This document shows, one piece after another, positions 13,786 through 55,348 of a DNA stretch of 64,000 nucleotides. The notes beneath the pieces were generated by a model, which saw only the letters and a program-made list of their open reading frames with translations, was not told the origin of the DNA and made no database searches. This DNA is from Alphaproteobacteria bacterium (GTDB lineage Bacteria > Pseudomonadota > Alphaproteobacteria > Bin95), in contig OZ219785.1 in assembly GCA_964291285.2 (NCBI GenBank), forward strand, positions 384,001 through 448,000, in the 5' to 3' direction. Each line of letters starts with the position of its first letter. Positions within the stretch are counted from its first letter, which is position 1. A program made the position numbers and the translations under genes.

Positions 13786-13806
13786 CGGAGCCGCCGCCCG
13801 GCCGGG

Positions 13807-15851: not shown

Positions 15852-15881
15852 TATATATGGACGCCCCTTTTGCCCTACAAG
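15852..15881 (-). promoter_or_regulatory. RpoH (sigma32) promoter of dnaK
   Basis: Minus strand CTTG-N17-CCATATATA, matching the alphaproteobacterial heat-shock consensus, about 120 bp upstream of dnaK. Confidence 0.8.
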
Positions 15882-15933
15882 ACCCGGGCGCCTCGCTCGA
15901 GGTGCGGCAAAAAATGCCAATTCAGGCGAAAAA

Positions 15934-16758: not shown

Positions 16759-16768
16759 ACGGCCGTCT

Positions 16769-39700: not shown

Positions 39701-42669
39701 GCCGCCGTGGCGTCGCTCGTGATCCGCAGCGTCCCCGCATACGCCTTCGTCAGCGCCACCGTGTAGGTCGCCGTGGAACCGGGCGCCACCGTCACCGGCG
39801 TCCCGGTCAGCGTGAGCGCCGCCGTGGTGTCGTCCTTGAAGGTCACCGTACGGATGTTCGACCAGGGACCCTGAAGGTTGCCCGTTCCCCCGGCGACACC
39901 CGCCATGCGATAGCCCGTTGCCCGAACCCGGACCTCGACCGATGCCCCGTCAGGATAGTTCAGCAGAAGCCGATTGCTGCGAGAGCCCGGGTTCTGTCTG
40001 GCACTGGCCTGGTTGAGACTGCGATCCGTCCAGGCGGTTTCGCCCTTCAGCCGGGTCTGCGCTCTCCACCAATGGAACTTGGCCGCGTCTTTCACATAGT
40101 CGTCCGCATCCGACAACTCGTTCGAGCCGCCGGCATGGGTCCAGGTCAGGTCGATCTGCCCGTTCGTCGTCGAGGTCGCCGCCGTCAGCACCGGGGCCGC
40201 CGGATCGGTCTTCGCCGTCACCTCGTCCGACCACACCGACTGCACCCCGGGACTGACCGCCGCAAACAGGCGGAACGTGTAGTCCGTCCCCTTCGTCAGC
40301 CCCGTCACCCGGACGCTCGTCCTGCTTCTGCCCGTGACCGTCGTGGTCGTGTTCCAGCCCCCCGTGCTCTTGTACTGGTAGCCCCAGCTCGTTATCGGAA
40401 TGCCCGACAGGCCGCTCCAGCTCAGGGTGACCGAGGCATCGCCTCCTGCCGCCGTCAGGACCGGCTTGGGAACCGTGTTCGTCGGCGTCGCCTTCACCTG
40501 GTCCGACCACACCGACTGCACACCGGGACCGACCGCGGCGAACAGCCGGAACGTGTATTCCGTGCCGATCGTCAGTCCCGTCACCGTGGTGCTCGTCGTG
40601 CTGCCGCCCGTGACCGTCCGGGTCCTGATCCAGCTGCCGCCCGCGGGCTTGTACTGATAACCCCAGCTCGCAACCGTCACACCCGACAAGGCGCTCCAGC
40701 TCAGGGTGACCCTGGCGTAACCCGGTTCGGCGCTCAGCACCGGCTTGGGAACCGCCGCCGACGCCGACGGCGTCGCCTCCACCACCGCCGACGCGGCGCC
40801 GTTGCCGCCGCTGTTCCGCGCCCGGATGCGGAAGCGGTACTCGCTGTCGTTGTTCAGACCCGTCACCGTGTGGGTCGTGGTGTCCGCGTCCGAACCGGAA
40901 ATCGCGGCCCAGCTGCCCCAGGCGGCGCTGCCCTTCCTCTGCTGCACCCGATACCTCGTGATCGAATCGTCGTCCGGATCGGTCCACGTCAGCTTCACCT
41001 GACGGTTGCCCGCCTCCGCCGACAACCCCGTCGGCGCCGCGGGGACGGCGACGGTGGGGGGATCGTCGTCGTCGGTGATGGTCAGAGTGAGTTTGCCGGC
41101 GGTCCAGCCGGACTTGTAACCAAGCAGCTTGATGGTCTCGTTCGGCTCGTCCCGGGTGTCGCCGAGAATGCGAAGGGTCCTCGTGCCCTCGGTCTCGCCT
41201 GCGGCGATGGAGACCGAAGCGTCACTGTTCGGCCAGCACCAGTCGGTATCCGCCGGGTTCAGGGGCGCGGTGCACTGGTCGCTCCCCTTGTTGGAGCCTT
41301 GGGCCGTGCCGGTGGTGATGTCAGAACCAAGTGTGATCGAAAAGTCCGCCGGCGCCGCCTCGCCGAGCGTGGCGGTCACCGTCACGTCCGTCGAACCGGA
41401 GTTGCCCTCGGTGATCGAGGTCGAGGTAGCCGACAAGGTGATCGTCTTCGTGGAAGCGGCCGCGAGGGTTGTGCCGGTGGCTTTTACGATGACGCCCGGA
41501 GGGCAGACCGCAGAAGGATTATAAGTAGAATGGGTCGCTGTAAGACTGATCTCATATTCGGTGTTGGCGTCCAGACCGGTCAGCGTGCGGCTGGTCGCGG
41601 CGGCATTCGAGATGGTGACAGAGGTCGAACTTTCCCCGGTCTTGCCGTAAGAAAACGTCCAGCCGTTGCGGAATACATCGGTCGGCGCCGTCCAGGTGAC
41701 GACAAACCCGTCCGAACGCGGCGCGAGGCTCAGGTTCGTCGGGCTGAGCACGGAAGGGCAGCTGTCCATAGGCGTCGCCGTCACCCAGCCCGTGGCGGCG
41801 CCGTCGCCGGAGGCGTTCACGGCGCGGATCATGAAACTGTATTCGGCGTCGTCTTCCAGCCCCGTTACCATGTGCCTCACGGTGTTCGCGCCCGAACCCG
41901 CCATGGCGGCCCAGGTGGCGCTGCCCTTTGCCGGTGTCTTGGCGTAGCGCAGCTTGTAGCCGGTGATCGTGCCGGCCGGCTTGGTCCACGTCAGCAACAC
42001 CTGTGTGGTGCCGGCCCCCGTCGCCGTCAGACCCGTCGGCGCCGCGGGGACAGAAGCGGTGGTGCCGTCGTTGTCAGTGATGGTGAGAATGAGCGTGTTG
42101 CTGTTCTGCGTCCAGCCATCCGAACGTGCCAGACTGTTGGGCACAAGCCTCAGGGCGACGGTTTCCCCGGTTCCCTCATCGACCGTGTCGCCCAGTATGC
42201 CGATTCCGAAACTTCCATTCGTCCCGACGTTAACATTTACAAATGCGTTGTCGCTGAATACACCGGGATAACAGATATCCGCGCCGCTGGACGGAGCACT
42301 GCAAGATGTGGTGCCAACATTGGTGTTGTCGCTTGCCGTGCTGCTGGCGGCAACAAACTCAACGTCAAATCCCACTCTAGTTGGCGTGCCCTCCCCGAGC
42401 TTGACGTTGATCGTCACATCCTTCTTGCCGGAATCGCCCTCGGTGATCGTGGTTGACGCGGTCGATATGGTGACGGTCTTGGCGGCGCGCGCGTTTTCGG
42501 GTGCGGTGAGCACCACCAGCGCGAAGAAGACAAAGACGAATCCCGCCTTCAGGCGGCGGGCGGTTCTCCCGAGGGCGCCCACCGGCTCAGCCCCGCGCCC
42601 TGACTCTTGAGGGGGGGGGGGGGTACAACGAGTTCGGGTTCGCGCGCGCGTGAGGCGCTCACATCCCAC
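36757..42669 (-). CDS. Giant autotransporter adhesin with Calx-beta and fibronectin type III repeats and a C-terminal beta-barrel
   Basis: Signal-like hydrophobic segment ending ARA; TITEGDSG Calx-beta and PAAPTGL...F.IRA.N FN3 repeats; barrel ending LRGALRW. True start uncertain (see findings). Confidence 0.9.
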   Translation of the reverse strand: MGCERLTRARTRTRCTPPPPQESGRGAEPVGALGRTARRLKAGFVFVFFALVVLTAPENARAAKTVTISTASTTITEGDSGKKDVTINVKLGEGTPTRVGFDVEFVAASSTASDNTNVGTTSCSAPSSGADICYPGVFSDNAFVNVNVGTNGSFGIGILGDTVDEGTGETVALRLVPNSLARSDGWTQNSNTLILTITDNDGTTASVPAAPTGLTATGAGTTQVLLTWTKPAGTITGYKLRYAKTPAKGSATWAAMAGSGANTVRHMVTGLEDDAEYSFMIRAVNASGDGAATGWVTATPMDSCPSVLSPTNLSLAPRSDGFVVTWTAPTDVFRNGWTFSYGKTGESSTSVTISNAAATSRTLTGLDANTEYEISLTATHSTYNPSAVCPPGVIVKATGTTLAAASTKTITLSATSTSITEGNSGSTDVTVTATLGEAAPADFSITLGSDITTGTAQGSNKGSDQCTAPLNPADTDWCWPNSDASVSIAAGETEGTRTLRILGDTRDEPNETIKLLGYKSGWTAGKLTLTITDDDDPPTVAVPAAPTGLSAEAGNRQVKLTWTDPDDDSITRYRVQQRKGSAAWGSWAAISGSDADTTTHTVTGLNNDSEYRFRIRARNSGGNGAASAVVEATPSASAAVPKPVLSAEPGYARVTLSWSALSGVTVASWGYQYKPAGGSWIRTRTVTGGSTTSTTVTGLTIGTEYTFRLFAAVGPGVQSVWSDQVKATPTNTVPKPVLTAAGGDASVTLSWSGLSGIPITSWGYQYKSTGGWNTTTTVTGRSRTSVRVTGLTKGTDYTFRLFAAVSPGVQSVWSDEVTAKTDPAAPVLTAATSTTNGQIDLTWTHAGGSNELSDADDYVKDAAKFHWWRAQTRLKGETAWTDRSLNQASARQNPGSRSNRLLLNYPDGASVEVRVRATGYRMAGVAGGTGNLQGPWSNIRTVTFKDDTTAALTLTGTPVTVAPGSTATYTVALTKAYAGTLRITSDATAAARVSPASLTFTTSNYSTARTVTVTGVANGTAVINHAFRLTGATADAIPDAGTVDVTVADTPGVTVSTAALTVAEGGSRTYTMRLNTPPTSDVTITVGGASGDVTVTGSPLTFTRTDWNQPQTVTVNAGTDTDTNTDPAVTLTHGASGGGYDSVTIADVVVSVAEKDAAPLKPAGLAGAAGNGSVTLSWTDPDNPTITKWQVRQKAGSGEWGEWEDIAGSGAGTTSHEVSGLTNGTAYQFEVRAVNGAGNGAGPDAPVTATPVAPAAPAPPSGGGGGGGGGTTPAADGSVTVTPTALRVSEGSSAAYTVVLDTEPSGDVTVTVGGASGDVTVEPASLTFTTTNWDTAQTVTVRAARDEDTVDDTATLTHGASGGGYGSVTIDPVAVTVTDTTLLPVLTLAQDPAAVTEGDDIRLTVTADRALTGSLSVNLTLAARNASGFDAGDVPGGLGPRSFDAVFGAAGRTTGVVTIPTAADADTEGAEAYRITLNDGAGYAVGSDATAAGVLRDRAPGSVSRANRVNAAVLPHVAAAAMSRTLGAVTDRIEAAASGRPGSSLRFGALPSSPVGHARAARSAPPRPEEHGPTLSEILDGASFTLAAGAGEDEAPPLAVWGRGEWLSLSGSEKDVTWDGGLWSAQLGADLRVRPDLLAGAALSHARGELDTRTTGAAGGRVKGVHETTITSVHPYAAWLLPDGSTLWASLGYGTGEVRIAEEGAPSRSADLTQWSASAGGRSVLVEDAELIGGGMTRLAVKGEGSASRLRTGSDDGLAGLTARTTRLRLLLEGSYEHALAGGATLTPALEAGVRHDGGDVAEGAGLEAGAGVTWHDPAAGLTAELRARLLAAHEADRDEWGVSALVRLDPGADGRGTFLAFGPAHGRTESGLDRLFDHGLPAAASGTAPEGAESRLEAEVGHGFGLAGPGPLAVLTPWAGLSLAETGGRTLRLGARYRLGAGLSLGLEGAHRPGPAPEDSLMLRGALRW
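42611..42623 (-). repeat. C13 homopolymer in the 5' coding region of the autotransporter
   Basis: G13 on the + strand, upstream of the signal peptide core. Confidence 0.9.
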
Positions 42670-42899
42670 CCGAAGAGCCGCAGGTCATGCATCCCGATAT
42701 CGCCCGGCATCCGCGTCATGACCTCATCCTCCCGTCCCGAATTCCAAGCATGCGCCGCGCCCGCAGGACCGCAGCGAACCCGCCGGTGCAACCCATAACC
42801 CGTTCGCAGGCCGGTTTCAATGCGCGCTGTGCCCGATAGCCCGCCATCGGCAAGATGGCGGGCGTGGCCCAGCGGTACCAGTGTGGATGGCATTGCACG

Positions 42900-43004
42900 A
42901 CGCCCATCTCGCCGACCGTGATATCGAAGCCGCCGCGGAATACATCGGGCAGGTGTAGGTGATCGCGCGGGCCATGGCGGGTCAACCGCGAAAGCGTCGG
43001 TGAC
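42900..43004 (+). repeat. Decayed copy of the integrase-2 3' end (direct repeat of 30729-30828)
   Basis: ACGCCCATCTCGCCGACCG.GA.ATCGAAGCCGCCGCGGAA...GCGCGGGCCATGGCGG...CGGTGAC present at both sites. Confidence 0.85.
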
Positions 43005-43113
43005 AGCAGGGTATGGGCTGCGGGTTCCGGGGGCAGGGAGCCTGAGGCCGGCATGGAGGTTACATGCCATGGTTCCTGCAAAGACGGGCCACGACAATAT
43101 CGTTTCAGGCCGG

Positions 43114-44001
43114 CTATATGGGCGCCGAGGTCAGCGCATCATTGAGTCTGGCGAGGTCATCGCGGTTCTCCTTCGGGGAGCGCAACTCGATGGCCCGCCA
43201 GGCGCTCTGGGCGGCAAGCGCGTCGATGACTCGCGGAAGGTCGCCGGCCGGCAACGACTCCTCTTCCCGTAGAAACAGGATCAGGCCGCCGAAAACATTC
43301 TCGGGACTGAGATAGCTGCGCCCGGAATGCATTTTTTCGGCGATAATCGCGTATCGGGGACCGGTCAGTATTTGCAGGATGTCGTCCCGTCCAATACCCA
43401 GCAATTCGGCCATCCGTTCGGCCCAGTGCAAGCGCCACCACGACTTCCCGAGCGGAAAATCGTCGAATACGACACGAGCACCCCGAGGCTCAGGATTGCA
43501 GAGTGAACGCAGTATACGCCGGACGCAACGGTCCCTTGCTTTCGCCGATGCGTCATCCTCCGCACTCAAGGCGTCCTCGATATTGGACAAGCCGGCTTCG
43601 TCATGCGTGTCGCTGGCATTCGCGGCCAACCACGACGCCTGGACAAGGCCACGCTCGACCATTTCCCGCATGACAACGCCCCAGAAGCAGACATCCGCAT
43701 ACAATTCCTCGTTCCCGCCTCCGTCAGCAAGCGCAAATCCCTCCCGGATCTCCTTTTGTGTCGTAGGCGGCGGCTCGATGAATTCGTGTTCGGAAAACCG
43801 ATAATCGAAATCCCCAAGCGCACTGCAACCTTCAATGCTGTCAACAGGCAGATAGTCGTCCATATATTCGAGAAATTCCTCCTTGGAGCAACAAGCTTCA
43901 AGAAATTCCCTTTGAGCCTGTTCGGTTCCTCCCTTGCTCAGCAGGACTCGTTTTCCGAAATCATGCCATTCTTGCTTCGGATAGCGCTTCCGCTGGCCCA
44001 C
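43114..44001 (-). CDS. Hypothetical protein (295 aa), gene 4 of the PAPS/GHKL operon
   Basis: Long lower-GC ORF starting 3 bp after the previous stop; helical, with CFWG and KSWWRLHW motifs; GTG start. Confidence 0.75.
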   Translation of the reverse strand: MGQRKRYPKQEWHDFGKRVLLSKGGTEQAQREFLEACCSKEEFLEYMDDYLPVDSIEGCSALGDFDYRFSEHEFIEPPPTTQKEIREGFALADGGGNEELYADVCFWGVVMREMVERGLVQASWLAANASDTHDEAGLSNIEDALSAEDDASAKARDRCVRRILRSLCNPEPRGARVVFDDFPLGKSWWRLHWAERMAELLGIGRDDILQILTGPRYAIIAEKMHSGRSYLSPENVFGGLILFLREEESLPAGDLPRVIDALAAQSAWRAIELRSPKENRDDLARLNDALTSAPI

Positions 44002-44004
44002 GGA

Positions 44005-44913
44005 TCAATCCTCGTCTTCGGTATCGTCGGTTTTCAAAATAGCGTATGGCCGCATTTTCGTTGCCGCCAGACTCGGGTTGAAGTCGTCCTCGTCCCAGAA
44101 CATGTCGGTCTTTTCCTTCAGATGCCTTCCGTGTGCGAGCAATATCCGATTGATTGCACCTTCCTCATCATCATCGTGCCCGTCGCCATTGTTACATGAC
44201 ATCTGCATATAGCTATAGATGGCGCAAAGTGCCTGGGTCAGAATTGCCGACCGCATGGCGTCCCGGCTTGTCGATGGCGTCGTCTCTGTGAACGCCCGTA
44301 ATTCATCATAAACATCGCTGGCGCAGTAAAGGATCACGGGTTTCTCGTCTTCCCTGGCGTGTTCGCGTACGACAGTTTTCATTTCCCCTTTCCCGAGTTC
44401 CGTGTCTGGAAACACATGGATAAGGCTGATGAGCGAATCGTCGTCGAAACTCAGCTTCGCATGACGACCGATGCGGGCATGGCGCGGAATGTCGATCCGC
44501 TCTCCCTCCTGCCAAAGGTCCGTCAGGCCGGATCCGGGATGGTTGACGATCAGTTGCCTGTCGTTTGTCGTAACGATGCCAGGGAACACTTCCGGGGTTT
44601 CAAGATATCGGATCGGGATGCCCTGCTTCGCCGACAACGTGTCGGGAGACTCATCCCATGAGCCATCGAATAGCCACGCTTCGCGGCGGGCGCCGTTGCG
44701 GAACAGCAGCCGCGTCGAAAAGCGCGCGTCGCCCGAGACTATCCAGTCCCGAACGAAGGATACGCCGGTCAGGCGGTGCTCGACCGTCAGCATCCTCGGC
44801 TGGCCGCACCGCGCACCGCTTATCGTCGCCGCCACCTCGTAACGAATACCGTCAGCGAAACCCGCCCCATCCTCGTCGAGGACGGGGAAATCGAGAGCGA
44901 CAATCTCCGTCAT
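44005..44913 (-). CDS. Hypothetical protein (302 aa), gene 3 of the PAPS/GHKL operon
   Basis: ATGA overlap with the ATPase stop; N-terminal DFPVL motif. Confidence 0.8.
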   Translation of the reverse strand: MTEIVALDFPVLDEDGAGFADGIRYEVAATISGARCGQPRMLTVEHRLTGVSFVRDWIVSGDARFSTRLLFRNGARREAWLFDGSWDESPDTLSAKQGIPIRYLETPEVFPGIVTTNDRQLIVNHPGSGLTDLWQEGERIDIPRHARIGRHAKLSFDDDSLISLIHVFPDTELGKGEMKTVVREHAREDEKPVILYCASDVYDELRAFTETTPSTSRDAMRSAILTQALCAIYSYMQMSCNNGDGHDDDEEGAINRILLAHGRHLKEKTDMFWDEDDFNPSLAATKMRPYAILKTDDTEDED

Positions 44914-46763
44914 TCCGCGTCCTCCGGTTTCGCAGCATCGCCTTCCGTCTCCGACGGTCGCTCCCGTTTCAGCGAAACCAGAGGAAGGACGCCGACCGTC
45001 ATGCCTTGCGCGCTGCCGGGCGGCAAAGCCAGCACCGCCTCTACAACCACCCGCGCGTGCTTGGCCAGCCTGCCCAACGGGACGGTCTGGTCGTTCAAGA
45101 TTTCCGTGCTTCCATTTACCAGAACACTCTCCGGAGTGAACCGGTCTCCGGCGATGCTGTCGTCCCTGTCTTCGGCGACGCAGAACGAAAGCATGGCGCT
45201 GTCCCTGGGGTGCGTGTCCTCAAGTGGCGTGATTCTCACACGAACCCGCAGCCTGTCCTCTCTCCGCTCCGCCCTGGCCTCGACCCTCGCCTCGGCCGGG
45301 CGTCCGAACATCGGCGGGCGCGGGCTGTTGCCACCTCCACCGCCGCCCCTTTTTCTTTGTCCCTTTCCGGGAGGGCTGATTCCGAACCTTTCCACGCGCT
45401 TGGCCCTGCGGTTTCCGCCGACTGCCGCATCCACAGAGTCAAAAATGGGCAACTCGAACCCCTCCCGTTCGATTTTCGGCAGGCGCTCCCGAACTTTACC
45501 AGCCAGCTCTGCGAGCAACTCCCGAAGCCGGCGTTCGTCCCCATTGTTGAGTTGTCCTCTGTTAAGGCTGTTATGGTATGGGCCTTCCGCAGCCTTGACC
45601 AAGCCGAACAGCTCCTTGCCTGCCTGCGCTTGATTGACATCTATCACCAAGGAAAAACGAGCCACATCCTCCGACTTGCGCAGAGTATCGAACTCCGACA
45701 CCAGCATGGAATCGTGTCGGGCGATGAGCATATCGCTGCGAATCAGGGCAACCGACGACGCCGAAATGTCCTCGGTGTGGATATAGATATTCACTCGATC
45801 ATCATTGCTCAATTGAATCTCGGTGGCACTCGAGTCCCGAACAGCCAGATATGACTGCCATGTATGGCTCCCGGAGAGAATTTCTCCTCTTCTTCTCTTT
45901 CTCCTTTGCCTGTCTCTACCCTCCATCAACACTTTCTCGATTATACCTTGGTCCAGAATGACATTATCCTTACGATTCTTCCTGTGAATACATACCGATA
46001 ATCTTTCGTGTAAAATGGCACTGAAGAAGTGATTTGCAATTGCTGTTTCAAAATCATCACCCCACTTATCCGACAAACCGAGAATTCCGATGATACTACC
46101 ATGTCCTCTATCTCCCATGGCACGCGCCATAAATTGTGGCATATCGTTCGGGTAATCAAAACAAGGGTTGGCCTCATCTTCGGGCTTTGAATTCAATATT
46201 CTCCCGACATTACCGCGTTTGGCATCGGTGTCCTGAAAACCGGCAAGAATGGGAACGCCGGTAAATAGTGTTGTTTCTTCTCTTCGGGAAGCATAAAGAA
46301 CATACCTTAGCGAAGACAGATCATACGCTTTGAGGTGACCGACCCCGAATGATCCGCCGCTGCCTTCCCGCTTGCTGCTGCGGTGTTCTATCAGGGAATC
46401 GAGTATTTTGCTGTCCATCCCATTGCCATTGTCGGTAAACAAGAGGACAGGAATTTTCTTTTTGTTCAGCTCCGACTCAATGTTCTCAACAATCATTTCC
46501 TGCTGACGTTTGTAAGCATTTAGTTCTTTTTGAGTTTCAACCGCTTTATGCAAATACTGTCTGTAACTGTCAATATGAGGAATATCGCCAATTGAAATTT
46601 CATCAATGGTAATTTCTACACGGCACTCCGTGCCATCTGTAGTTGCATCGAGAGAATTCTGCATCAGTTCCCGTATCGGGATATCCAGACCTTCCTGCCT
46701 GTCCGCAGTCGTACTGGAGGTAAAGCCGTCCATACTGCCGTAGGGGAAATAAAGTTCGGTCAT
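44910..46763 (-). CDS. GHKL (HATPase/MORC-like) ATPase-domain protein (617 aa)
   Basis: Bergerat-fold boxes IRELMQNSLDA, FTDNGNGM, GGSFGVG and HGSIIGI. Confidence 0.85.
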   Translation of the reverse strand: MTELYFPYGSMDGFTSSTTADRQEGLDIPIRELMQNSLDATTDGTECRVEITIDEISIGDIPHIDSYRQYLHKAVETQKELNAYKRQQEMIVENIESELNKKKIPVLLFTDNGNGMDSKILDSLIEHRSSKREGSGGSFGVGHLKAYDLSSLRYVLYASRREETTLFTGVPILAGFQDTDAKRGNVGRILNSKPEDEANPCFDYPNDMPQFMARAMGDRGHGSIIGILGLSDKWGDDFETAIANHFFSAILHERLSVCIHRKNRKDNVILDQGIIEKVLMEGRDRQRRKRRRGEILSGSHTWQSYLAVRDSSATEIQLSNDDRVNIYIHTEDISASSVALIRSDMLIARHDSMLVSEFDTLRKSEDVARFSLVIDVNQAQAGKELFGLVKAAEGPYHNSLNRGQLNNGDERRLRELLAELAGKVRERLPKIEREGFELPIFDSVDAAVGGNRRAKRVERFGISPPGKGQRKRGGGGGGNSPRPPMFGRPAEARVEARAERREDRLRVRVRITPLEDTHPRDSAMLSFCVAEDRDDSIAGDRFTPESVLVNGSTEILNDQTVPLGRLAKHARVVVEAVLALPPGSAQGMTVGVLPLVSLKRERPSETEGDAAKPEDAE

Positions 46764-46775
46764 CGGCGTCAGGCG

Positions 46776-48020
46776 TCAATCCGTGCAATTGCAATCATCG
46801 TAGGATTCGTCCACCAGAAATTCGGCTTCCGGCATGGCTGGCGAGCAACCCGCAGCCTCTTTGGCGGCGTCCCGGATTGCCCCATAGACCGGCCCGCCGG
46901 CCGGCCCGAAGAAGCCGAAATGCGTGACGCTCTCGTGTGTCCTGTTGCGCTTCTCTTCAATGAGGTTACGGCCGTATCGTCCTTCCATCGCCGCCCACCA
47001 GTCAATCGATTCCGGGTTCGAGGCGTCCGAGGGGCACTCCCGAGCCAGCGTCATCAGGCTGGATCGGCCTTTCATCATGCAGAACACACAATTGCCGTAA
47101 CGCCCGTCGGGGGGCAGTCCGAGATCAAACTGCTGCAACTTCCAGAACGCCGTCACGGCTTCCCTGTCAATATCGCCTTCCACCAAGGGCGCACTGACGG
47201 CCTCGCCCGGCGGCTGGTCCCCCCAAGCCCGGCCCTTCCGCCTCTGGGCGCTGGCGATACGGGCCTTCATCTTGGCGAGCCTGTGCGCTTCATCGGCCCG
47301 GATGCCGAGACAGGATTCGAATCGTATCGCCTTCGGACCGAAAAGCCTTGCAGGCGGCGTCGCCCGCCACAAGTCAGGGACGGATGAGAAATCGGCGAAA
47401 CGCTGCGCGGGCCGGGTCAGCGGACAACTCCTCACATAGCATTTCTTGTCGAGTAGAATCGCTGGCGGCGTTCGACCGCGATTCCGTCTGTGCCCGGCGA
47501 GCAGGCTTTCGTCGGTGATGCGGGAGCCTGATCCGGAATGGCCCAGCCGCTTCGGACCGTCGCCGCGACCGAACCAGTCCGACAGGAACGCATTGGACGG
47601 GGCGACCTTCATCATTCGGGTGCAGAACCGGGCCTGTATCGAAGGCGTTGCGCACTCGTAGGACAGCATTTCCTCGAACACTTCGCCCCGGTGGCGATAC
47701 CCGGCCGGATTATCCGGCCCGAAGGGGCGTTCGTTCACCAGACGGTAGGCCGGGCGGCGCGCCCAGTCGCCGCGAACCGCATCTTCATAAGTGCAGAATT
47801 CGAGCCAGAAAAAGGGCAGGCCGCGGTTTTCCGCCAGAACCTTCAGGTGCCCCAGATAGTCGTAAGTCGCCGGATGCTCGGCAGAGGTGTTCGTGAAGAT
47901 GGCGACGTCGCCGCGCGATGGATCCAGGGCGCGCGCATCCAGCAGGCGCAGCAGCATCATGCCCGACGAACGCCCGCCTGAGACTTTCACGATCCTGGGT
48001 ACGTCCGGGCCTGTTTCCAT
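46776..48020 (-). CDS. PAPS-reductase/adenine nucleotide alpha-hydrolase family protein with Cys motifs (414 aa)
   Basis: PP-loop VSGGRSS, NTSAEHPATY, RFCTRMMK, LGIRADE, GNCVFCMMK and terminal CNC; GGAGG upstream of ATG 48020. Confidence 0.85.
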   Translation of the reverse strand: METGPDVPRIVKVSGGRSSGMMLLRLLDARALDPSRGDVAIFTNTSAEHPATYDYLGHLKVLAENRGLPFFWLEFCTYEDAVRGDWARRPAYRLVNERPFGPDNPAGYRHRGEVFEEMLSYECATPSIQARFCTRMMKVAPSNAFLSDWFGRGDGPKRLGHSGSGSRITDESLLAGHRRNRGRTPPAILLDKKCYVRSCPLTRPAQRFADFSSVPDLWRATPPARLFGPKAIRFESCLGIRADEAHRLAKMKARIASAQRRKGRAWGDQPPGEAVSAPLVEGDIDREAVTAFWKLQQFDLGLPPDGRYGNCVFCMMKGRSSLMTLARECPSDASNPESIDWWAAMEGRYGRNLIEEKRNRTHESVTHFGFFGPAGGPVYGAIRDAAKEAAGCSPAMPEAEFLVDESYDDCNCTD

Positions 48021-48236
48021 GCGTCCAGTGCCTCCCATCGGAGACAGAACAATATGGTTCGACGATGAGCAACACAAATCGGGACTGACAGAACCATCTT
48101 TGGATTTCTGTTCGAGGCGGCCATCGCTCCTGAAGACCCGCGCGCGGCGCAGAACGACCGCCCCGCGGGCTGCCGTGACAAGACTGTCCTTGCGGACGAC
48201 TATGGGCGGACGGCCCATCCGGTCTAGGATGCGCGC

Positions 48237-48872
48237 ATGGTGGCGACGGTGACGAGCCTTTCGTCGGCGAGTTCGACGGTCCACTATTTCGAGCAGGACG
48301 GCTACTACGCGAAGAACGATCCGGAGCACCGCAAGGCGAGCTTCTGGCATGAGGAGCTGGCGCGGGCTGCCGGGTCTCGGGCGGCATGTTTCGCCGACGC
48401 TCTTCAACGCGATTCTTCAGGGTCATGTACCCGGCACGGATATCCGGCTGGGCCGGGTGCGCGACGGCGGGCGCCAGCACCGTCCGGGGGTGGACGTCAC
48501 GCTTTCGGCGCCGAAGTCGGTCTCGCTGGCGGCGCTGCTGCACGGTGACCGTCGGGTGATCCGCGCGCATGACGAGGCGGTGCGGGAGACGCTGGACCGG
48601 CTGGAGGCGGAGCTGCTGCAGACGCGGGGCTGGGACCCGGCGACGCGGCGGCGCTCGCGTGTGAAGGCGCACGGCATGATCGCGGCGACGTTCCGGCATC
48701 TTGCGAGCCGCAATCTGGACCCGCAGCTGCACACGCACTGCGTGGTGGCGAACATGTCCCGGAACGGTGCCGGGGAGTGGCGGAGCATCGAGGCGACGGC
48801 GATCCGCCGCAACAGGAAGCTGATCGGGGCGCATTACCGCAACGGGCTGGCGCGGCGTCTGGAGGCGTTCGG
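48237..48872 (+). pseudogene. Truncated, frameshifted MobF (TrwC-type) relaxase
   Basis: YFEQDGYY, +1 frameshift near 48350-48385, HLASRNLDPQLHTH; homology to the 50168 gene ends near 48870. Confidence 0.85.
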
Positions 48873-50114: not shown

Positions 50115-50167
50115 GTGCCGTGGCTGCGAGCGGTGCGATTGCGGCCGGGCAAGGCTGATCGAGGCGC

Positions 50168-53100
50168 ATGGTTGCGGGCCTGACGGACCTCACCTCGACC
50201 ACGATGACGGTCGGGTATTTCTCCAGGGAGGGTTACTACGCGAAGAACGACCCGCGCCAGCGCCGGGCGAGCTTCTGGCACGGGGCCGGAGCGGCGGCGC
50301 TCGGCATGGCCAGGCATGTCTCGCCGCGGGCGTTCGGGCGCATCCTGTCGGGCCATGTGCCCGGCACGGACATCCGGCTCGGGCGGGTGCGGGACGGGGA
50401 GCACCAGCACCGGCCGGGCTTCGACCTGACGCTGTCGGCGCCGAAGACGGTCTCGCTGGAGGCGCTGCTCCATGGGGACCGGCGGGTGCTGGGCGCGCAC
50501 GACGCGGCCGTGAAGGCGACCCTGGACTGGCTGGAGAGGGAGCTGCTGCAGACGCGGTCGTACGATCCCGTGACCCGGCAGCGTCCGCGCGTGGCGGCGA
50601 ACGGACTGGTGGCGGCCGGGTTCCGTCACCTGACGAGCCGGGACCAGGACCCGCAGCTTCACACGCACTGCATCATCGCCAACATGACGCGCGACCGGTC
50701 GGGCGCGTGGCGGAGCGTCGAGCCGACGGAAATCCGGCGCAACGTGCGGCTGATCGGGGCGGTCTACCGCCAGGAACTGGCGCGGCGGCTGCTGGCGCTC
50801 GGGTTCGCGATCGAGGCGACGATGATCGGCGGCGTGCCGGGGTTCGAGATCGCGGGCTACGGGCGGGAGTTCGTGGACGCGTTCTCGTCGCGGCGCCGGG
50901 AGATTCTGGCGTGGCTGGACAAGCACGGCCTGCCCTGGAGCGCGGCGCTGACGCAGCAGGCGGCGCTGATCACCCGGAAGAAGAAGGCGGACAGGGACGT
51001 CGACGAGCTGCGGGCGGAGTGGAAGACGCGCGCCGAGGAGCTCGGGCTCTCCCGCGACCGCAGCATCGCCAGGCCCGGGCTCCGGCGGACGACGACCGCG
51101 TCGCGGAAGACGGCGCGCAAGGCGGGCCGGCCCTATGTGCGGACAGCGGAGGAGCTGCAGCCCGAGCCGCCGGGGCTGAGCGCGCGGGAGGTGACCTGGC
51201 GCGCGGTGGAGCATCTGGCGGAGCGGGCCCCGGTGATCCGGGAGCGCGAGATCAGGGCGATCGCGCTCGGCCATGCGCCGGGCCGGCACGGGCTGGGAGA
51301 CATCGACGCGGCGTTGGCGGGGCTGATCGGGGACGGCCACCTCGTGGAAGCGCAGCTCCGGGGCGGGCGCTCGTTCGTGACCTCGGAGGCGCTCGGCCTG
51401 GAGCGCGGGATCATGGCCATGAAGCGCCGGGCGCTGGGCGCCTCGCAACCGCTGGCGGAGGAGACGGCCGTCTCGTGCCGATTGGCCGAAACGGCGCTGA
51501 CCGAAGGGCAGCAGGAGGCGGTGCGCACCATCCTGCTGTCGCAAGACGGCATCGTGGCGGTGCAGGGCGCGGCCGGCACCGGCAAGACGACGATGCTGAA
51601 GGAGGCGCTGGGGCTGCTGGGCGGACGCAGGGCGGTCCTGCTGGCGCCCTCGGCAGCCGCCGCGCGGGTTCTGCGGGAGGAGACCGGCGTCCGGTCCCGG
51701 CCGCTGCAATGGTTCCTCACCCGCCACGGCGATCTGGGCAATGCCGCGCGCGTGGCCCGGGACCGGCAGGACCACGAGGGCGCGGTGCTGGTGGTGGACG
51801 AGGCCTCGATGGTCTCGACCGCGGAGATGGAGTTGCTGATGCGGATCGCGGCGCGGTTCCGCGTCGCGCGGCTGGTGCTGGTGGGCGACCGGCGGCAGCT
51901 GCGGGCCGTGCGGGCGGGCGAGCCGTTCCGGGCGCTGCAGGAGGCGGGCGTGGCGACGGCGGAGATGGAGGAGGTCCTGCGCCAGCGCGACCCGGCCTTG
52001 AAGGCTGCGGTCGAGCATCTGAAGGAGGGCCGTCCCCGCGAGGCGCTTCGGGAGCTCGAACATGTCCACGAGGCGCCGCAGCAGGAGTTGGGCGCGGAGG
52101 CGGCCCGGCTCTGGCTGGCGCTCGACCCGGAGGACCGGGCGCGGACGGCGATCCTGGCGCCGACGCATTTCATCCGGGCGGAGATCCACCGGGTCGTGCG
52201 GGACGGGCTTGCGCGCGAGGGCGTGCTGCACGGGCGCGAGCTGGAACTCGAACGCTATGCGAACCGCCACCTGACGGCGGCGCAGCGCGCGGACCTGCGC
52301 AACCACGAGCCGGGCGACATCGTGCTGTTCCACTCGCGCGTGGCGCCGCTGCGGGTGGAGAAGGGCGACGCCTGCCGGGTGATGCGCGCGGAGGGAGAGT
52401 TCGTCTTCCTGGAGCACCCGACGGGGCGGACGGTGCGCATCCGCCCCGGCGACAGCTGGGTGCGCTACCGGTTCGGGCTCTACGAGACGGCGCGCATCCG
52501 CATCCGGGCGGGCGACCGCATCCGCTGGACGATGAACGACGAGCGGCGCGGGCTTGTGAACGGCGGCGGTGCGGTGGTGCGGGAGATCGGGTCGCGCCGG
52601 GTGAGGTTCGATCTGGGAGACGGCAGGACCCTGTCGCTGGCGCGCACCGACCCGCAACTCCGCCATATCGACCATGCCTGGAGCACGACCCTGCATGCGG
52701 CGCAGGGCATGACAAGCGACGGCGCGATCGGCGTGCTCGACACGGGGCACGGGGCGCTGACCGGCCAGGCGGGCCTCCATGTGGAGGCGAGCCGGGCCCG
52801 GGACCGGTTCGTGCTGGTGACGAACGATCGCGAGCGGCTGGAGGAGGTGCTGGAGGCGAATGACGGCTCGCGCATGACGGCGCTGGAGGCGGTGGGCGAG
52901 AACGGGGACCCGCCGCCCGCCGCGGCGCTTGCCATGTTGCGCGGGCTGGAGGCGGACTGGCGGGAACTCGTTGCCCGGGCTGAAACGCAGGGCAGCGACC
53001 TTGTCCGCACGGAGGGCTATGCCCGTATCGTGACCGGCACGGCGATGCTGGCGGAGGACATGGCGCTTCCGGCGGACCTGCGGGCGTTCGTGGAGGAGGT

Positions 53101-55348
53101 CCGCAGCAGGGACGCGCAGGCCATTGCGGAGCGCCGGCAGGGGTTCGCGTTCCTGCGCCGGGCGGAGAGGCACGGCCGCGACTGGCCGCTGCTGAAACGG
53201 GCGGCGGCGAAGCGCGGGCGGTCGATGGGCGAACTTCCCGAACATGCGGCCTGGCTGGCGGAGGGCAGGACGCTCGCCGATACGGGACAGGAACTCCGGG
53301 AGGGCGGCGGCCAGGGCATCGCCGCCAGGATCGGCGCCGCGCTCCGGCGCCTGGTGCGGGGCCGGGAGCTCGACGAGGCGGAACGGTTCCGCGAGGCTGC
53401 GGCGCGGCACGAGGCCGGCGCGCGGGCGGCGGGCGTCGATCCCCGAGAAACGGCCGGCGCCGAAGCGCTGGCGGAATGGGCGGGGCGGCTCCGGGGCCGG
53501 GAGGTACCGCAGGCGGCGCGTCCGGCGGTCGAGGCCTGGTGCGCGGCACACACGGAACGCGGGCCCGCTTCCGGAACGCCGCCGACGCCCCGGGACAGGA
53601 AGGCCGTGCTCGGCATCGAGACGTTCCTGCTGGACTGCGACGGTCTTCTGTTCGATGCCGGCCCCGGAGGTGCTGCGGAACCGGATTCCTGGGACGAGCG
53701 GGCGGCGAGGCTTCGCCAACAGGGCCTCGGAATGCTCGGCGAGGGACCGGGCGCGAAGCTCGGCGATCCGCTCCGCATCCGCCTTGCGCGCGTCGGGGCC
53801 GAGCGCGCGCGGGTTCGCGAGGCGGTCGACAGGCTTGCGGCGGCGGCGCTGCGACGCCGCTCGGCAAGGTTCGCGGCGCTTGTCAGGACGGTGGGCCGGC
53901 AACGCCGCGGGTCCGGCTCCGACCCCGTCGACCTGCCGTCCTGGGCCGGGCTCCGCGACCGGGCGGAGGAACTCAGGGGCGAGGCGTCTCTTGAGCCCGA
54001 GGTGCGGCGCGCCGTGGACCGGGTGTTCGACCTCGATGCCCGCGCAAAGGCGGAGACCGAACCGGTCATGTCGTTCCTGAAGGCAGGCGAAGGACATCTG
54101 CGCCAAAGGGAGGGTCTGGAGGAGAAAGCCGGCGAGGCCGGGATCGCGCCCTTCGTGCTCGGGGACATGAAGGCATGGCGGGAGGGCTCCCGGGAACTCC
54201 GGGCCGTCGGCCGGCGTCTGCTGGGCGAGGCGGAGGCCGGCGCGGCCGAGGCCAGGGCCGCCTCCCGCCTGAAGGTCATGCCCCGCCTCCGGGACCGGGT
54301 GCGGGAGGTGCTGGCCGGGCTCGAGGCCGTGCGGCTGCGAGACGCGGGCGACGCCTTCATGTCGCTCGCGGACCGGGTCGAGCGGCTCGCCGTCCGGGAC
54401 GACACGCTGGCGCTCCATGCGGAAGGTTATGCGCGGGTCACCATGTACGCGAAGGAGCTGGAGGCGCTGCCGGAGCCGGCCCGCCGGAGGGCCGGGGAGT
54501 GGCTTGCCCGCGACCGCCGGTGGACCGAGGACCTGGCGTCGGTCGCCGGGCTCGCCGGCGGGTTCGGACAATCGGCCGATCCGGCCGCGCAGCGTGAGGC
54601 GGCCGGCCGGCCCGCCGTGGCGGAGGCCATCCGCCGCGAGAGGGAGCGGCTTGCGCGCGTGCCGGAACCCGCACACTGGCTTCGCTGGACCGGGGAGGAA
54701 CCGCTCGTTCCGGGCGACCGGGTCCGCGTCGGCGACGACATCATGGAAATCATCGTCGTCTCCGCAGGAGCGGCCGGCGGCATGCACGAGGACGACCTGC
54801 TGCAGGTGCGGATGCTGGATGTCGCGGGTCCGGACGAACCGCCCGGGCTTGGGGCGGTCATCCCCCGAACGGCCGAATCCCTCGTCAGCATCGGCTGCGC
54901 CCGCGCCGCCTGGTCCGACGAGAGGCTCCGGGAACTGGAACTGGCCCGGCACCGGTCGGTGCCGTCATGGCTCTGCCGGCTGGCCTGCGGCGAACCGGTG
55001 CCGGGCGACCGCATCGCCTGGACCGAGGACGCCGGCGAAGGCCGGGTCCTCACGGTCGAGGCGAAGGTGACGGCGCGCATGGACGATATCCGCTTCGGCA
55101 GCCCGAGGCTCCGGCTCGAAACCGTCGAGGCCTCGGGCCCGGACGCGCCCGAGCCGGGCAGCGATATCGAGAGGACGGTCGCCGCGGTCACCGCGCGCGG
55201 ATGCTTCCGCGCCGAATGGAGCGACGAGACCCGCCGCGCACGTATCCTGAACCCGCCGAAGCCGGTTCAGACGCCCCGGCAGGTGCAAGAAACGACCCAG
55301 GAGCAGCGCGTCGACCGCTCCGAAGGCGGCGGGCTCAGCGCGGGCTGA
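50168..55348 (+). CDS. MobF relaxase-helicase (TrwC/TraA-like) with long C-terminal extension
   Basis: YFSREGYY, FDLTLSAPK, HLTSRDQDPQLHTH; RecD-like helicase QGAAGTGKT, VVDEASM, LVGDRRQL, HAAQG. Confidence 0.95.
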   Translation: MVAGLTDLTSTTMTVGYFSREGYYAKNDPRQRRASFWHGAGAAALGMARHVSPRAFGRILSGHVPGTDIRLGRVRDGEHQHRPGFDLTLSAPKTVSLEALLHGDRRVLGAHDAAVKATLDWLERELLQTRSYDPVTRQRPRVAANGLVAAGFRHLTSRDQDPQLHTHCIIANMTRDRSGAWRSVEPTEIRRNVRLIGAVYRQELARRLLALGFAIEATMIGGVPGFEIAGYGREFVDAFSSRRREILAWLDKHGLPWSAALTQQAALITRKKKADRDVDELRAEWKTRAEELGLSRDRSIARPGLRRTTTASRKTARKAGRPYVRTAEELQPEPPGLSAREVTWRAVEHLAERAPVIREREIRAIALGHAPGRHGLGDIDAALAGLIGDGHLVEAQLRGGRSFVTSEALGLERGIMAMKRRALGASQPLAEETAVSCRLAETALTEGQQEAVRTILLSQDGIVAVQGAAGTGKTTMLKEALGLLGGRRAVLLAPSAAAARVLREETGVRSRPLQWFLTRHGDLGNAARVARDRQDHEGAVLVVDEASMVSTAEMELLMRIAARFRVARLVLVGDRRQLRAVRAGEPFRALQEAGVATAEMEEVLRQRDPALKAAVEHLKEGRPREALRELEHVHEAPQQELGAEAARLWLALDPEDRARTAILAPTHFIRAEIHRVVRDGLAREGVLHGRELELERYANRHLTAAQRADLRNHEPGDIVLFHSRVAPLRVEKGDACRVMRAEGEFVFLEHPTGRTVRIRPGDSWVRYRFGLYETARIRIRAGDRIRWTMNDERRGLVNGGGAVVREIGSRRVRFDLGDGRTLSLARTDPQLRHIDHAWSTTLHAAQGMTSDGAIGVLDTGHGALTGQAGLHVEASRARDRFVLVTNDRERLEEVLEANDGSRMTALEAVGENGDPPPAAALAMLRGLEADWRELVARAETQGSDLVRTEGYARIVTGTAMLAEDMALPADLRAFVEEVRSRDAQAIAERRQGFAFLRRAERHGRDWPLLKRAAAKRGRSMGELPEHAAWLAEGRTLADTGQELREGGGQGIAARIGAALRRLVRGRELDEAERFREAAARHEAGARAAGVDPRETAGAEALAEWAGRLRGREVPQAARPAVEAWCAAHTERGPASGTPPTPRDRKAVLGIETFLLDCDGLLFDAGPGGAAEPDSWDERAARLRQQGLGMLGEGPGAKLGDPLRIRLARVGAERARVREAVDRLAAAALRRRSARFAALVRTVGRQRRGSGSDPVDLPSWAGLRDRAEELRGEASLEPEVRRAVDRVFDLDARAKAETEPVMSFLKAGEGHLRQREGLEEKAGEAGIAPFVLGDMKAWREGSRELRAVGRRLLGEAEAGAAEARAASRLKVMPRLRDRVREVLAGLEAVRLRDAGDAFMSLADRVERLAVRDDTLALHAEGYARVTMYAKELEALPEPARRRAGEWLARDRRWTEDLASVAGLAGGFGQSADPAAQREAAGRPAVAEAIRRERERLARVPEPAHWLRWTGEEPLVPGDRVRVGDDIMEIIVVSAGAAGGMHEDDLLQVRMLDVAGPDEPPGLGAVIPRTAESLVSIGCARAAWSDERLRELELARHRSVPSWLCRLACGEPVPGDRIAWTEDAGEGRVLTVEAKVTARMDDIRFGSPRLRLETVEASGPDAPEPGSDIERTVAAVTARGCFRAEWSDETRRARILNPPKPVQTPRQVQETTQEQRVDRSEGGGLSAG

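Follow-up and report, generated by a model that had tools for sequence, protein, structure and literature searches.

An operon that joins a PP-loop enzyme of the PAPS reductase superfamily to a GHKL ATPase and two further proteins raises the question of what the enzyme modifies and which part its three partners play. Such an operon lies in the window, a stretch of 64,000 nucleotides (nt). The cassette, which is carried on a mobile element, looks like an undescribed variant of PDC-M33, a candidate antivirus system, with probable DNA marking of the sulfur type.

Architecture and surroundings of the cassette

The four genes are all encoded on the minus strand, are intact and tightly spaced, and make up a cassette rich in AT that adjoins a TrwC relaxase gene. 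Gene 1 (46776..48020, 414 amino acids [aa]) encodes the PP-loop enzyme and is followed, after a gap of 12 nt (46764-46775), by gene 2 (44910..46763, 617 aa), which overlaps gene 3 (44005..44913, 302 aa) by 4 nt (44910-44913); gene 4 (43114..44001, 295 aa) comes after a further gap of 3 nt (44002-44004). Genes 2 to 4 stand with exactly these limits in the ORF list for the minus strand, and the longest ORF for gene 1 starts with TTG (46776-48407, 543 aa, minus strand). The true gene 1 is the 414-aa form with its ATG at 48020, since it agrees at 100% with a database entry that is likewise exactly 414 aa long and since the homologues share the start point and GGGAGG stands 10 nt 5′ of the ATG. This Shine-Dalgarno-like motif (48031-48036) was found by inspection of the upstream noncoding leader of the operon (48021..48236, minus strand), in which a scan for consensus promoters gave nothing above chance.

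The GC content is 0.46 to 0.55 at 43.5 to 44.5 kb and 45.5 to 47.0 kb, compared to 0.70 to 0.78 in the flanks. A TrwC-like relaxase gene is represented by an N-terminal fragment at 48212..48377 (plus strand), which is repeated at 50164-50304. In a blastn and tblastx comparison with the related locus L001, only the four-gene block (69.5% at the nucleotide level) and the relaxase fragment were common to both, and the fragment marks an old boundary between the cassette and a conjugative element. An intact TrwC/MobF relaxase-helicase gene (50168..55348, plus strand; Pfam TrwC [PF08751], 8.6e-77; AAA_30, 3.2e-47) belongs to the context outside the system, and an IS transposase is encoded at 34921-36399. 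A previous sequence-only reading of this DNA had described four co-oriented intact ORFs with these spacings, in part more AT-rich than the host and adjoined by a MobF relaxase, all of which holds; the integrase relic that it placed at the flank of the operon could not be confirmed, as the Phage_integrase matches within the window lie only at approximately 29130-29609 and 30263-30745.

The neighboring relaxase brings up the possibility that the cassette serves a mobile element, as an anti-restriction or addiction module that marks the DNA of a conjugative element and punishes its loss. A TrwC relaxase adjoins the cassette here and in L001, the GC content of the cassette is foreign, and elsewhere a solo gene 1 and a Dcm-gene 1 fusion are found beside TopB and DUF2857 genes in an ICE-like setting. 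However, most of the 80 loci of the census described below are chromosomal, and defense and addiction are not mutually exclusive; we consider service to the element highly improbable as the explanation of the cassette.

Gene 1 and its three partners

Gene 1 is a member of a large unnamed PP-loop family, with relatives in 208 representative clusters at E ≤1e-30 and in 1150 at E ≤1e-10, and is cysteine-rich and probably an Fe-S enzyme. Its translation contains SGGRSS, RFCT, GIRADE, CVFC, and a terminal CNC, i.e., every motif that had been read from the sequence beforehand (the last two as CxxC and CxC), and the residues S14, G15, G16, S19, C133, D243, E244, C311, C314, C410, and C412 are the same in all 69 aligned homologues. 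In hhalign, gene 1 aligned with SspD over 184 columns (probability, 98.9%; E, 3.4e-17), and both have the same layout of five cysteines, made up of RxCT, CxxC, and a C-terminal Cys pair. Gene 1 exceeds SspD by approximately 140 aa, carries two large insertions, and has a C-terminal WW...CxCTD region of its own. PADLOC returned partial matches to SspD (1.7e-9, residues 118-154 only), BrxP (5.9e-4), and DndC (0.069, over 24 residues; hhalign probability, 31.6%), and as these are partial or weak, gene 1 is not counted as a member of the DndC or BrxP HMM family. Judged by these profiles, gene 1 is an SspD homologue that falls outside the SspD family as modeled by PADLOC. A profile search found no real relative among PDB sequences. 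PF01507 is matched, weakly, by 10 of 17 family members, and the protein of the window stays below its threshold.

A fusion of a C5 DNA methylase to gene 1, as seen at locus L067, occurs in 3 of the best 150 representative clusters (P0136, P0139, and P0137), and at another locus (L029) gene 1 adjoins PbeA and a PbeC/DndD-like gene. The Dcm fusions, the PbeA/PbeC/DndD-like neighbors, and the BrxU/GmrSD-like neighbors described below argue for DNA as the likely substrate, and gene 1 is predicted to be a DNA sulfur-modification enzyme.

Genes 2 to 4 are, by homology, best described as diverged homologues of PDC-M33 A, B, and C. PDC-M33 is a PADLOC candidate that stems from a "guilt by embedding" prediction and is presented as untested in the consulted part of its description (Payne et al., bioRxiv 10.1101/2024.01.29.577857). 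Gene 2 is a GHKL ATPase in which the N-terminal ATPase is followed by a middle region, a linker rich in Gly and Arg, and a small domain at the C terminus; it matches the PDC-M33A model (PDLC04582) with 9.2e-25 over residues 31-434 and stays below the cutoff of Pfam HATPase_c. As the sequence-only reading had stated, all GHKL boxes (N, G1, and G2) can be recognized; E32 and N36 are conserved in at least 90%, D111, G115, G137, G140, and G142 are invariant, and E393 and H397 of a downstream ExxxH motif are invariant in 68 sequences. GHKL motifs together with an ExxxH that is conserved in the C-terminal portion of the S5 domain characterize paraMORC2, according to the sections consulted of Iyer, Abhiman and Aravind (2008, PMC2292703), and gene 2 has both at the level of sequence.

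Genes 3 and 4 are recognizable at the family level. The gene 3 protein of the window has no direct family match and none to PDC-M33B (PDLC04583) at E up to 0.1, but 44 of 63 aligned homologues match PDC-M33B (best, 3.3e-13), and the family profile detects the B gene directly after A in 56 of the 80 loci of our canonical comparison set (those metagenome loci that lie closest to canonical PDC-M33A). By transitive homology, gene 3 thus belongs to PDC-M33B at the family level. In its AF2 model (pLDDT, 91.0), an Ig/FN3-like beta-sandwich at the N terminus precedes a helical C-terminal part, and structure searches gave only generic FN3 matches (Z ≤9.0). Gene 4, an all-helical protein, likewise lacks a direct match to DUF6339 (PF19866) and the PDC-M33C models (PDLC04584-7); DUF6339 is matched by 27 of 59 homologues (best, 7.6e-9), and the family profile detects C in 18 of the 80 canonical loci, a transitive homology to PDC-M33C/DUF6339 that is weaker than that of gene 3. 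The AF2 model of gene 4 (pLDDT, 92.3; pTM, 0.90) had a best Foldseek E of 1.2 against the PDB and a best VIA Z of 6.1. At one locus (L041), B and C are fused in a single ORF, which suggests that genes 3 and 4 act together. Neither Pfam and PADLOC profiles nor structure searches and alignments revealed a nuclease or other effector domain in genes 2 to 4.

These matches alter the earlier picture of an uncharacterized operon without recognizable companions from known systems. The trio is already listed as a PADLOC candidate, with gene 2 recognized directly as PDC-M33A, gene 1 matched partially, and genes 3 and 4 not matched directly; what looks undescribed is the pairing with a PP-loop enzyme.

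Conserved linkage and the methylase-for-PP-loop exchange

The census of gene 1 relatives covered 80 genomic loci from at least 14 phyla, in which gene 2 was found in 74, gene 3 in 70, and gene 4 in 68, with the gene order conserved. Most of these loci are chromosomal stretches of MAGs, and the taxon names of many MAGs carrying the family are sponge-associated. Six loci have gene 1 without the trio, four of them with ample flanks, and therefore the trio is not obligatory for gene 1; the solo loci include L024, L025, and L048. A cysteine desulfurase of the class-V aminotransferase type, matching SspA (2.2e-140) and DndA (2.5e-140), is encoded between genes 1 and 2 or nearby in 37 loci. BrxU/GmrSD-like (DUF262) nuclease genes are embedded in or adjoin 24 loci and are missing from 56, and their products resemble BrxU/HEC-05 (4e-19) far more than SspE (0.0036). 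The 80 loci yielded no conserved ORF clusters other than those of the trio, the desulfurase, and DUF262.

An assimilatory PAPS/APS reductase (CysH) was considered for gene 1 and rejected, since PF01507 is not reached by the window's protein and the conserved neighborhood consists of the trio, the desulfurase, and DUF262 genes instead of cys genes. More generally, gene 1 might belong to ordinary sulfur metabolism or tRNA thiolation (CysH/TtcA-like) and stand beside an unrelated trio by chance, as the PF01507 matches of its family could suggest. Against this, the trio accompanies gene 1 in 74 of the 80 loci, which come from at least 14 phyla, fusions to DNA methylases occur, and the ORF clusters of these loci include no conserved sulfate-assimilation neighbor; the probability of a chance neighborhood appears close to negligible.

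Among the canonical loci, gene 1 occurs in none of the 80 and a C5-methylase in 54, whereas a screen for C5-cytosine methylases found Dcm in only 1 of the 80 gene 1 loci, where it is fused to gene 1. The operon of the window contains no DNA methyltransferase gene. In a GHKL tree of 131 rows, a single split with an SH-like support of 100 separates the two flavors, which were sampled from separate seeds, so that intermediates may be missed. The genome of the window carries both flavors, the canonical one as a Dcm gene with PDC-M33A/B/C, its PDC-M33A copy matching PDLC04582 at 5.7e-98. As a pattern, it is confirmed that the usual C5-cytosine methylase of PDC-M33 is replaced here by an SspD-like PP-loop enzyme. 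The sequence-only reading had likened genes 2 to 4 to a trio of a GHKL ATPase, a "PVL" protein, and a DUF6339-like protein that usually lies near cytosine methylases and had supposed that the PAPS-like enzyme may take the place of the methylase; both ideas are borne out by these counts, as is the co-occurrence of gene 1 and the trio on which that reading depends. Its suggestion of DNA sulfur chemistry for gene 1 has gained from the linked desulfurases, the likeness to SspD, and the Dcm fusions, with the chemistry itself still a prediction.

Sulfur chemistry is less certain for the clade of the window than for the family, since most of its members lack a desulfurase of their own: the operon desulfurase is absent in 17 of the 18 rows of this clade. 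The window encodes none; host desulfurases are encoded in its genome. PP-loop enzymes can also thiolate bases or transfer nitrogen, and for this reason phosphorothioate in particular can only be named as the probable mark. The mark of gene 1 may instead be a thiolated base, made in the manner of TtcA or ThiI, or, in the desulfurase-less clade, a nitrogen-containing adduct, with the rest of the model unchanged. Consistent with this, gene 1 is a distinct family, set off from SspD by its insertions and C-terminal region, and it replaces, and is at times fused to, an enzyme that modifies the cytosine base. On the other hand, the closest relatives of gene 1 that could be detected, SspD and after it BrxP and DndC, are phosphorothioation enzymes, its cysteine layout copies that of SspD, and it has Pbe/Dnd-type neighbors in L029, and we regard a mark other than phosphorothioate as decidedly unlikely.

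Proposed working and comparison with known systems

We consider it moderately probable that the cassette encodes a system of the PDC-M33 type that couples modification to discrimination, with sulfur marking of DNA, probably as phosphorothioate, on the one side and ATP-driven discrimination on the other. Gene 1 would take persulfide sulfur from a cysteine desulfurase, here presumably host IscS or a DndA-type enzyme because the operon encodes none, and with ATP would insert it into the DNA of the host or the element, most probably as backbone phosphorothioate. Gene 2 and its partners may form an ATP-driven DNA-clamping complex that tells marked from unmarked DNA and excludes unmarked phage or plasmid DNA. 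Recruitment of the marking enzyme may be a further task of the complex, in analogy to BREX, in which marking and exclusion both require one chassis. Because no nuclease was found in genes 2 to 4, the role of the trio as reader/effector is one that we infer.

This lack of a recognizable nuclease would also fit a trio that is the DNA-scanning or targeting machine of gene 1, equivalent to DndD/DndE or SspB/SspC, with the cassette only marking and restriction coming from separate genes (e.g., BrxU/GmrSD-like) or not at all. The characterized phosphorothioation enzymes treated in the consulted parts of PMC12839542 and PMC10853773 all act alongside an ATPase and a partner that binds DNA, some genomes fuse gene 1 to a DNA methylase as if a DNA-recognizing partner were needed, L041 has three trios for one gene 1, and a separate BrxU-like nuclease is added in 24 of 80 loci. 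However, the usual partner of the trio is a C5-methylase (54 of 80 loci), an autonomous enzyme, gene 1 occurs solo in L024, L025, and L048, and a BrxU-like gene is missing from 56 of the 80 loci. A pure targeting role is, in our judgment, rather unlikely, and we retain discrimination by the trio as the preferred model.

More tentatively, and with slightly more doubt than confidence, we propose an undescribed immunity family based on DNA sulfur modification of the phosphorothioate type, in which the partners of an SspD-like enzyme would be a paraMORC GHKL clamp and two proteins that match no solved structure, where other systems have SspB/SspC or DndD/DndE. Its chassis would take either 5-methylcytosine or a sulfur mark, and the family would have reached at least 14 phyla through horizontal transfer. 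If true, self/non-self discrimination by this chassis would be independent of the chemistry of the mark, and a widespread further family of the phosphorothioation type would exist on a completely different ATPase chassis. Each described phosphorothioation machinery is informative on how bacteria mark their own DNA. Apart from the machineries compared below, Tdp is a further one that has been described. They are few, and the literature consulted names Dnd, Ssp, and BREX type 4. PDC-M33 is common, and the same three-protein core paired with two chemically unrelated marks, both versions in one genome, is a natural experiment that can help to tell a core that reads the mark from one that recruits the marker or does both. 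"PAPS reductase" genes of this kind in marine and symbiont metagenomes should not be labeled sulfur metabolism, a caution that is relevant to virome annotation.

Among known systems, SspABCD-SspE shares with the cassette the homology of gene 1 and SspD over the PP-loop, RxCT, (I)RADE, and CxxC, as well as the C-terminal Cys pair, and relatives of the cassette have an SspA/DndA-like desulfurase and in some cases a DUF262-type nuclease. Unlike Ssp, the cassette has no SspB (DUF4007) or SspC (BrxC-like ATPase), neither of which was matched in genes 2 to 4 by PADLOC at E up to 0.1, and its PP-loop enzyme is the longer one with two insertions. In BREX type 4, as far as the consulted sections of PMC12839542 go, the methylase of a multiprotein ATPase chassis is likewise replaced by a phosphorothioation apparatus of the PAPS reductase type, with a sporadic desulfurase; however, the chassis of the cassette is unrelated, without PglZ, BrxL, or BrxC, and BrxP matches only the PP-loop of gene 1. 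The PADLOC scan, which covered the four operon genes, gave no BREX match in genes 2 to 4. DndABCDE and the CxC/DndDE-centered scanning cores also exchange phosphorothioation enzymes for cytosine methylases on one ATPase-centered core (PMC10853773, consulted sections), but gene 1 is not DndC, PADLOC matched neither DndD nor DndE in genes 2 to 4, and the core of the cassette is GHKL based rather than an ABC-ATPase with RHH. The paraMORC2 ATPases of restriction-modification-like operons resemble gene 2 in the GHKL domain with a downstream ExxxH, in their association with DNA methylases, and in lateral spread; in contrast, the consulted text of PMC2292703 holds no occurrence of a PP-loop/PAPS reductase partner, and the SF-II helicase and Vsr partners that it describes are absent from the cassette. 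PDC-M33 is closest, with the same three-gene core, order, and tight coupling and a modification gene immediately upstream. The cassette differs from it in core proteins that form a separate, deeply split clade, with genes 3 and 4 outside the direct reach of the B and C models, and in an upstream modifier that is an SspD-like PP-loop enzyme, accompanied by a desulfurase in 37 of 80 loci, and not a C5-cytosine methylase.

Linkage and mobility of the four-gene cassette

Our data show that a family of SspD-like PP-loop enzymes is genetically linked to a core of three proteins, a paraMORC2-type ATPase with two partners, and that this core is homologous to one that otherwise accompanies cytosine methylases. 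All four genes of the window are on the reverse strand: gene 1 (46776-48020, 414 aa), the PP-loop enzyme, gene 2 (44910-46763, 617 aa), the ATPase, and the partners gene 3 (44005-44913, 302 aa) and gene 4 (43114-44001, 295 aa). Genes 1 and 2 are 12 nt apart, genes 2 and 3 overlap by 4 nt, and genes 3 and 4 are 3 nt apart; the ORF coordinates bear out the co-oriented block, with these lengths and spacings, of the sequence-only reading. A longer gene 1 starting from a TTG (to 48407) is unlikely, since an identical 414-aa protein exists in the database, homologues start at the same methionine, and GGGAGG lies 10 nt before the ATG. A promoter and terminator scan of the operon gave counts no higher than in shuffled sequences.

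To find out how widely gene 1 occurs, the genomes of species representatives were scanned. A gene-1 relative is encoded by 356 stretches; the best 80 loci were kept and come from at least 14 phyla. In these 80 loci, homologues of gene 2 (74 loci), gene 3 (70), and gene 4 (68) are the regular neighbors, and the association of gene 1 with the trio is therefore conserved across genomes. With A, B, and C for genes 2, 3, and 4, the order 1-A-B-C of the window is found in 18 of the best 80 loci, and in 17 a cysteine desulfurase gene follows gene 1 (1-desulfurase-A-B-C). A DUF262 (BrxU/GmrSD-like) gene is present in 24 of the 80; it follows C in the order 1-desulfurase-A-B-C in 9 loci and is embedded after gene 1 in 6 and after the desulfurase in 5. 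The order A-B-C-1 occurs in seven. Gene 2 is absent from six of the 80, of which two (L042 and L043) have at most 300 nt of sequence before gene 1 and four (L024, L025, L048, and L067) have real flanks. Many carriers are marine metagenome-assembled genomes; going by their names alone, they would be symbionts of sponges (Poriferihabitaceae, Spongiihabitans, Porisulfidus, Porifericomitales).

The block is AT-rich, as had been described, with a GC content of 0.46 to 0.55 versus 0.70 to 0.78 around it. In the closest relative, locus L001 (78% protein identity for gene 1), the four-gene block and a relaxase fragment are all that is shared with the window, and hence the block moves as a cassette. 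The relaxase neighbor was found as a TrwC relaxase-helicase at 50168-55348, and the N-terminal part of a TrwC-like relaxase gene is present twice, at 48212-48377 and 50164-50304, about 1.8 kb apart. The nearer fragment, some 200 nt away from gene 1, is 85% identical to L001 at the nucleotide level, more similar than the other copy. This duplication suggests an insertion or rearrangement between cassette and relaxase. An integrase relic adjoining the operon, as given in the sequence-only reading, could not be recovered: Phage_integrase matches in the window are confined to the region near 29.1 to 30.7 kb (29130-29609 and 30263-30745). The whole genome (G000, 6.1 Mb) has 115 such matches, many of them in neighboring pairs or triplets that recur across contigs, a pattern suggestive of a heavy load of recombinase-bearing mobile elements. 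Downstream of gene 4 are a 182-aa ORF without a family (42549-43097), a gene (36757-42669, reverse strand) just downstream of the cassette whose 1970-aa product contains six or more fibronectin type III repeats, and, farther along, one for a 737-aa RTX calcium-binding repeat protein (32421-34634, reverse strand).

An SspD-like enzyme in a DNA and sulfur context

Gene 1 belongs to a large, unnamed family. A word-index search yielded 555 proteins, and a search of 1.84 billion representatives with the gene-1 HMM gave 208 clusters at E ≤ 1e-30, 1150 at ≤ 1e-10, and 2101 at ≤ 0.001. Invariant in 69 aligned members are the PP-loop residues S14, G15, G16, and S19, R131-x-C133-T134, G239-x-R241-x-D243-E244, N310-C311-x-x-C314, and the terminal C410-x-C412. 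The protein of the window reaches no Pfam family, and PF01507 is weakly matched by 10 of 17 relatives; PADLOC models gave partial matches only (SspD, 1.7e-9 over 37 residues; BrxP, 5.9e-4; DndC, 0.069). Against nine SspD proteins from other genomes, the gene-1 profile scored a probability of 98.9% (E = 3.4e-17, 184 columns) in an alignment that pairs the PP-loop, RxCT-x-x-MK, (I)RADE, and CxxC motifs, compared to only 31.6% against nine DndC proteins. A layout of five invariant cysteines, with a pair at the C terminus, is common to gene 1 and SspD. Judged by the SspD match, the cysteine layout, the weak DndC score, and the partial PADLOC matches, gene 1 is predicted to encode a distant, enlarged SspD-like enzyme that is neither DndC nor a member of any modeled family. 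The only match in a PDB sequence search with the profile, a 14-3-3 protein (E = 0.014), is spurious. In the ESM Atlas, gene 1 matched clusters without a name and viral ones labeled "PAPS reductase", and a viral contig collection held short, distant relatives (best E = 6e-16) and no close family member. A role in sulfate assimilation or tRNA thiolation was rejected on the basis of gene context.

That context is one of DNA and sulfur. The desulfurase, of the class V aminotransferase type, is present in 37 of the best 80 loci, typically between genes 1 and 2, and scores about 1e-140 against both the SspA and the DndA model. An 823-aa ORF (P0136; L067:6804-9275), also recorded as an identical protein, joins a complete C5 DNA methylase (3.9e-70) to a gene-1 domain, and two more representative clusters (P0139 and P0137; 852 and 610 aa) combine Dcm sequence with this domain. 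Such fusions make up 3 of the best 150 gene-1 representatives in the full HMM search; the word-index search did not find longer fused forms. In L067 and the related L024, the fusion or gene-1 gene adjoins topoisomerase III-like and DUF2857 genes in an ICE-like setting without the trio. At L029:9299-16086, gene 1 is followed by genes for a sigma-70 region 4/MzaA-like protein, PbeA (5.6e-151), a PbeC/DndD-like ABC ATPase (3.7e-45), and a GHKL protein; a similar sigma-4-containing protein of 713 aa precedes the trio in L130. The DUF262 proteins resemble BrxU/HEC-05 (4e-19), described as a type IV restriction family by Payne et al. (10.1101/2024.01.29.577857).

The window has no desulfurase of its own. 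G000 encodes IscS/SufS-type enzymes and has two DndC-type loci (1.0e-110 and 2.1e-120; C1:901770-902837 with C1:902942-904030, and C3:1526816-1527874), one of which adjoins a cysteine desulfurase. A sulfur donor is therefore available, and the host, by its gene content, probably already has Dnd-type phosphorothioation. Taken together, modification of DNA with sulfur by the cassette is fairly likely, and we see an even chance that the mark is specifically a phosphorothioate.

The ATPase trio and the exchange of the methylase

The assignment of gene 2 as a GHKL ATPase holds, with the N, G1, and G2 boxes conserved. It also has an invariant E393-x-x-x-H397, and this ExxxH motif is given as the signature of the paraMORC2 family by Iyer et al. 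(PMC2292703). Past residue ~440, a Gly/Arg-rich linker leads to a small, weakly conserved C-terminal domain. PADLOC recognized gene 2 as PDC-M33A (9.2e-25) and nothing in genes 3 and 4, which also gave no match in direct Pfam and NCBIfam scans. Among their homologues, PDC-M33B is matched by 44 of 63 for gene 3, and DUF6339 (= PDC-M33C) by 27 of 59 for gene 4. The AF2 model of gene 3 is an Ig/FN3-like sandwich with helices (pLDDT 91.0), for which fold searches found generic Ig/FN3 sandwiches only (Foldseek best E = 2.3e-3; VIA Z ≤ 9.0). Gene 4 is modeled as all-helical (pLDDT 92.3), with no convincing fold match (Foldseek best E = 1.2; VIA best Z = 6.1) and no usable match in the ESM Atlas. Such uninformative matches do not make the folds new. 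The two proteins show no similarity in BLASTP, and their placement in a single ORF cluster is due solely to L041, where B and C are fused in one ORF (6034-7857); this locus has three tandem GHKL-B-C trios around a single gene-1 homologue (1752-17118). A complex prediction of genes 3 and 4 with gene 1 as the scored partner gave 0.77, 0.74, and 0.78, and a control in which an unrelated protein took the place of gene 3 still reached 0.70, so that the prediction speaks neither for nor against a complex. No nuclease was recognized in the trio.

That such trios usually lie near cytosine methylases, and that the PP-loop enzyme may stand in for the methylase, was proposed in the sequence-only reading; both points found support. 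On another of its five contigs, G000 has a canonical locus (C3:1175146-1179797 = L083 8146-12798) with a C5-cytosine methylase, PDC-M33A (5.7e-98), PDC-M33B (4.9e-39), and PDC-M33C/DUF6339 (1.3e-38). The B gene of this locus falls short of its model (207 aa versus 289 positions), and a DDE transposase follows directly (L083 13175-14974). In the 80 metagenome loci closest to the canonical A protein of G000, a C5-methylase is present in 54, mostly directly upstream and co-oriented, and a gene-1 relative in none; conversely, Dcm is found in 1 of the best 80 gene-1 loci. Profiles made solely from window-type genes 3 and 4 pick out the genes that follow A in 56 and 18, respectively, of the canonical loci.

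In a FastTree phylogeny of 131 full-length A proteins (the window, 65 of 76 gene-1-linked and 63 of 80 metagenome ORFs, and two canonical genomic ones, with ORFs outside 580 to 720 aa dropped), the flavors fall on opposite sides of one branch with an SH-like support of 100. Because the loci of each flavor were collected around a separate seed, intermediates could have been missed. The window is in an 18-member subclade, 17 of which lack a desulfurase in the locus. We consider it highly probable that the cassette functions as a unit, homologous to PDC-M33 and with the modifier exchanged. Two canonical-type loci without Dcm (L132:3154-5630 and L134:2834-5310) carry two genes immediately upstream of the GHKL gene, one of the radical-SAM type (anSME/SPASM-like) and one of 347 aa, which could represent a third type of modifier; L142, L143, and L156 carry instead an 845-aa gene without a PDB sequence match.

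Proposed working and relation to known systems

In our model, gene 1 would put a sulfur mark on DNA, most probably a phosphorothioate because the only relatives that could be detected make such marks. The ATPase trio would clamp DNA and tell marked from unmarked, and genes 3 and 4 may work as a pair, in view of their fusion in L041. The trio may restrict DNA, bring in the marking enzyme, or, as in BREX, serve both ends. The loci in which gene 1 stands without the trio speak for an enzyme that can act alone, and the fusions to a DNA-recognizing methylase speak for one that depends on a DNA-binding partner. As a whole, a role in defense included, we narrowly favor this model as the best explanation.

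The trio itself is already cataloged as PDC-M33, one of 145 candidates in Payne et al. (10.1101/2024.01.29.577857); its composition, and whether a methylase belongs to it, is taken here from the PADLOC model names alone. Our literature search found no publication naming PDC-M33 or DUF6339 and none in which phosphorothioation goes together with a partner of the GHKL, MORC, or HATPase type, nor was the name PptA found, and therefore the PP-loop flavor appears to be undescribed. The exchange of the modifier has published precedents: one is described for BREX type 4 (PMC12839542), and another is provided by Dnd cores that carry methylases (PMC10853773).
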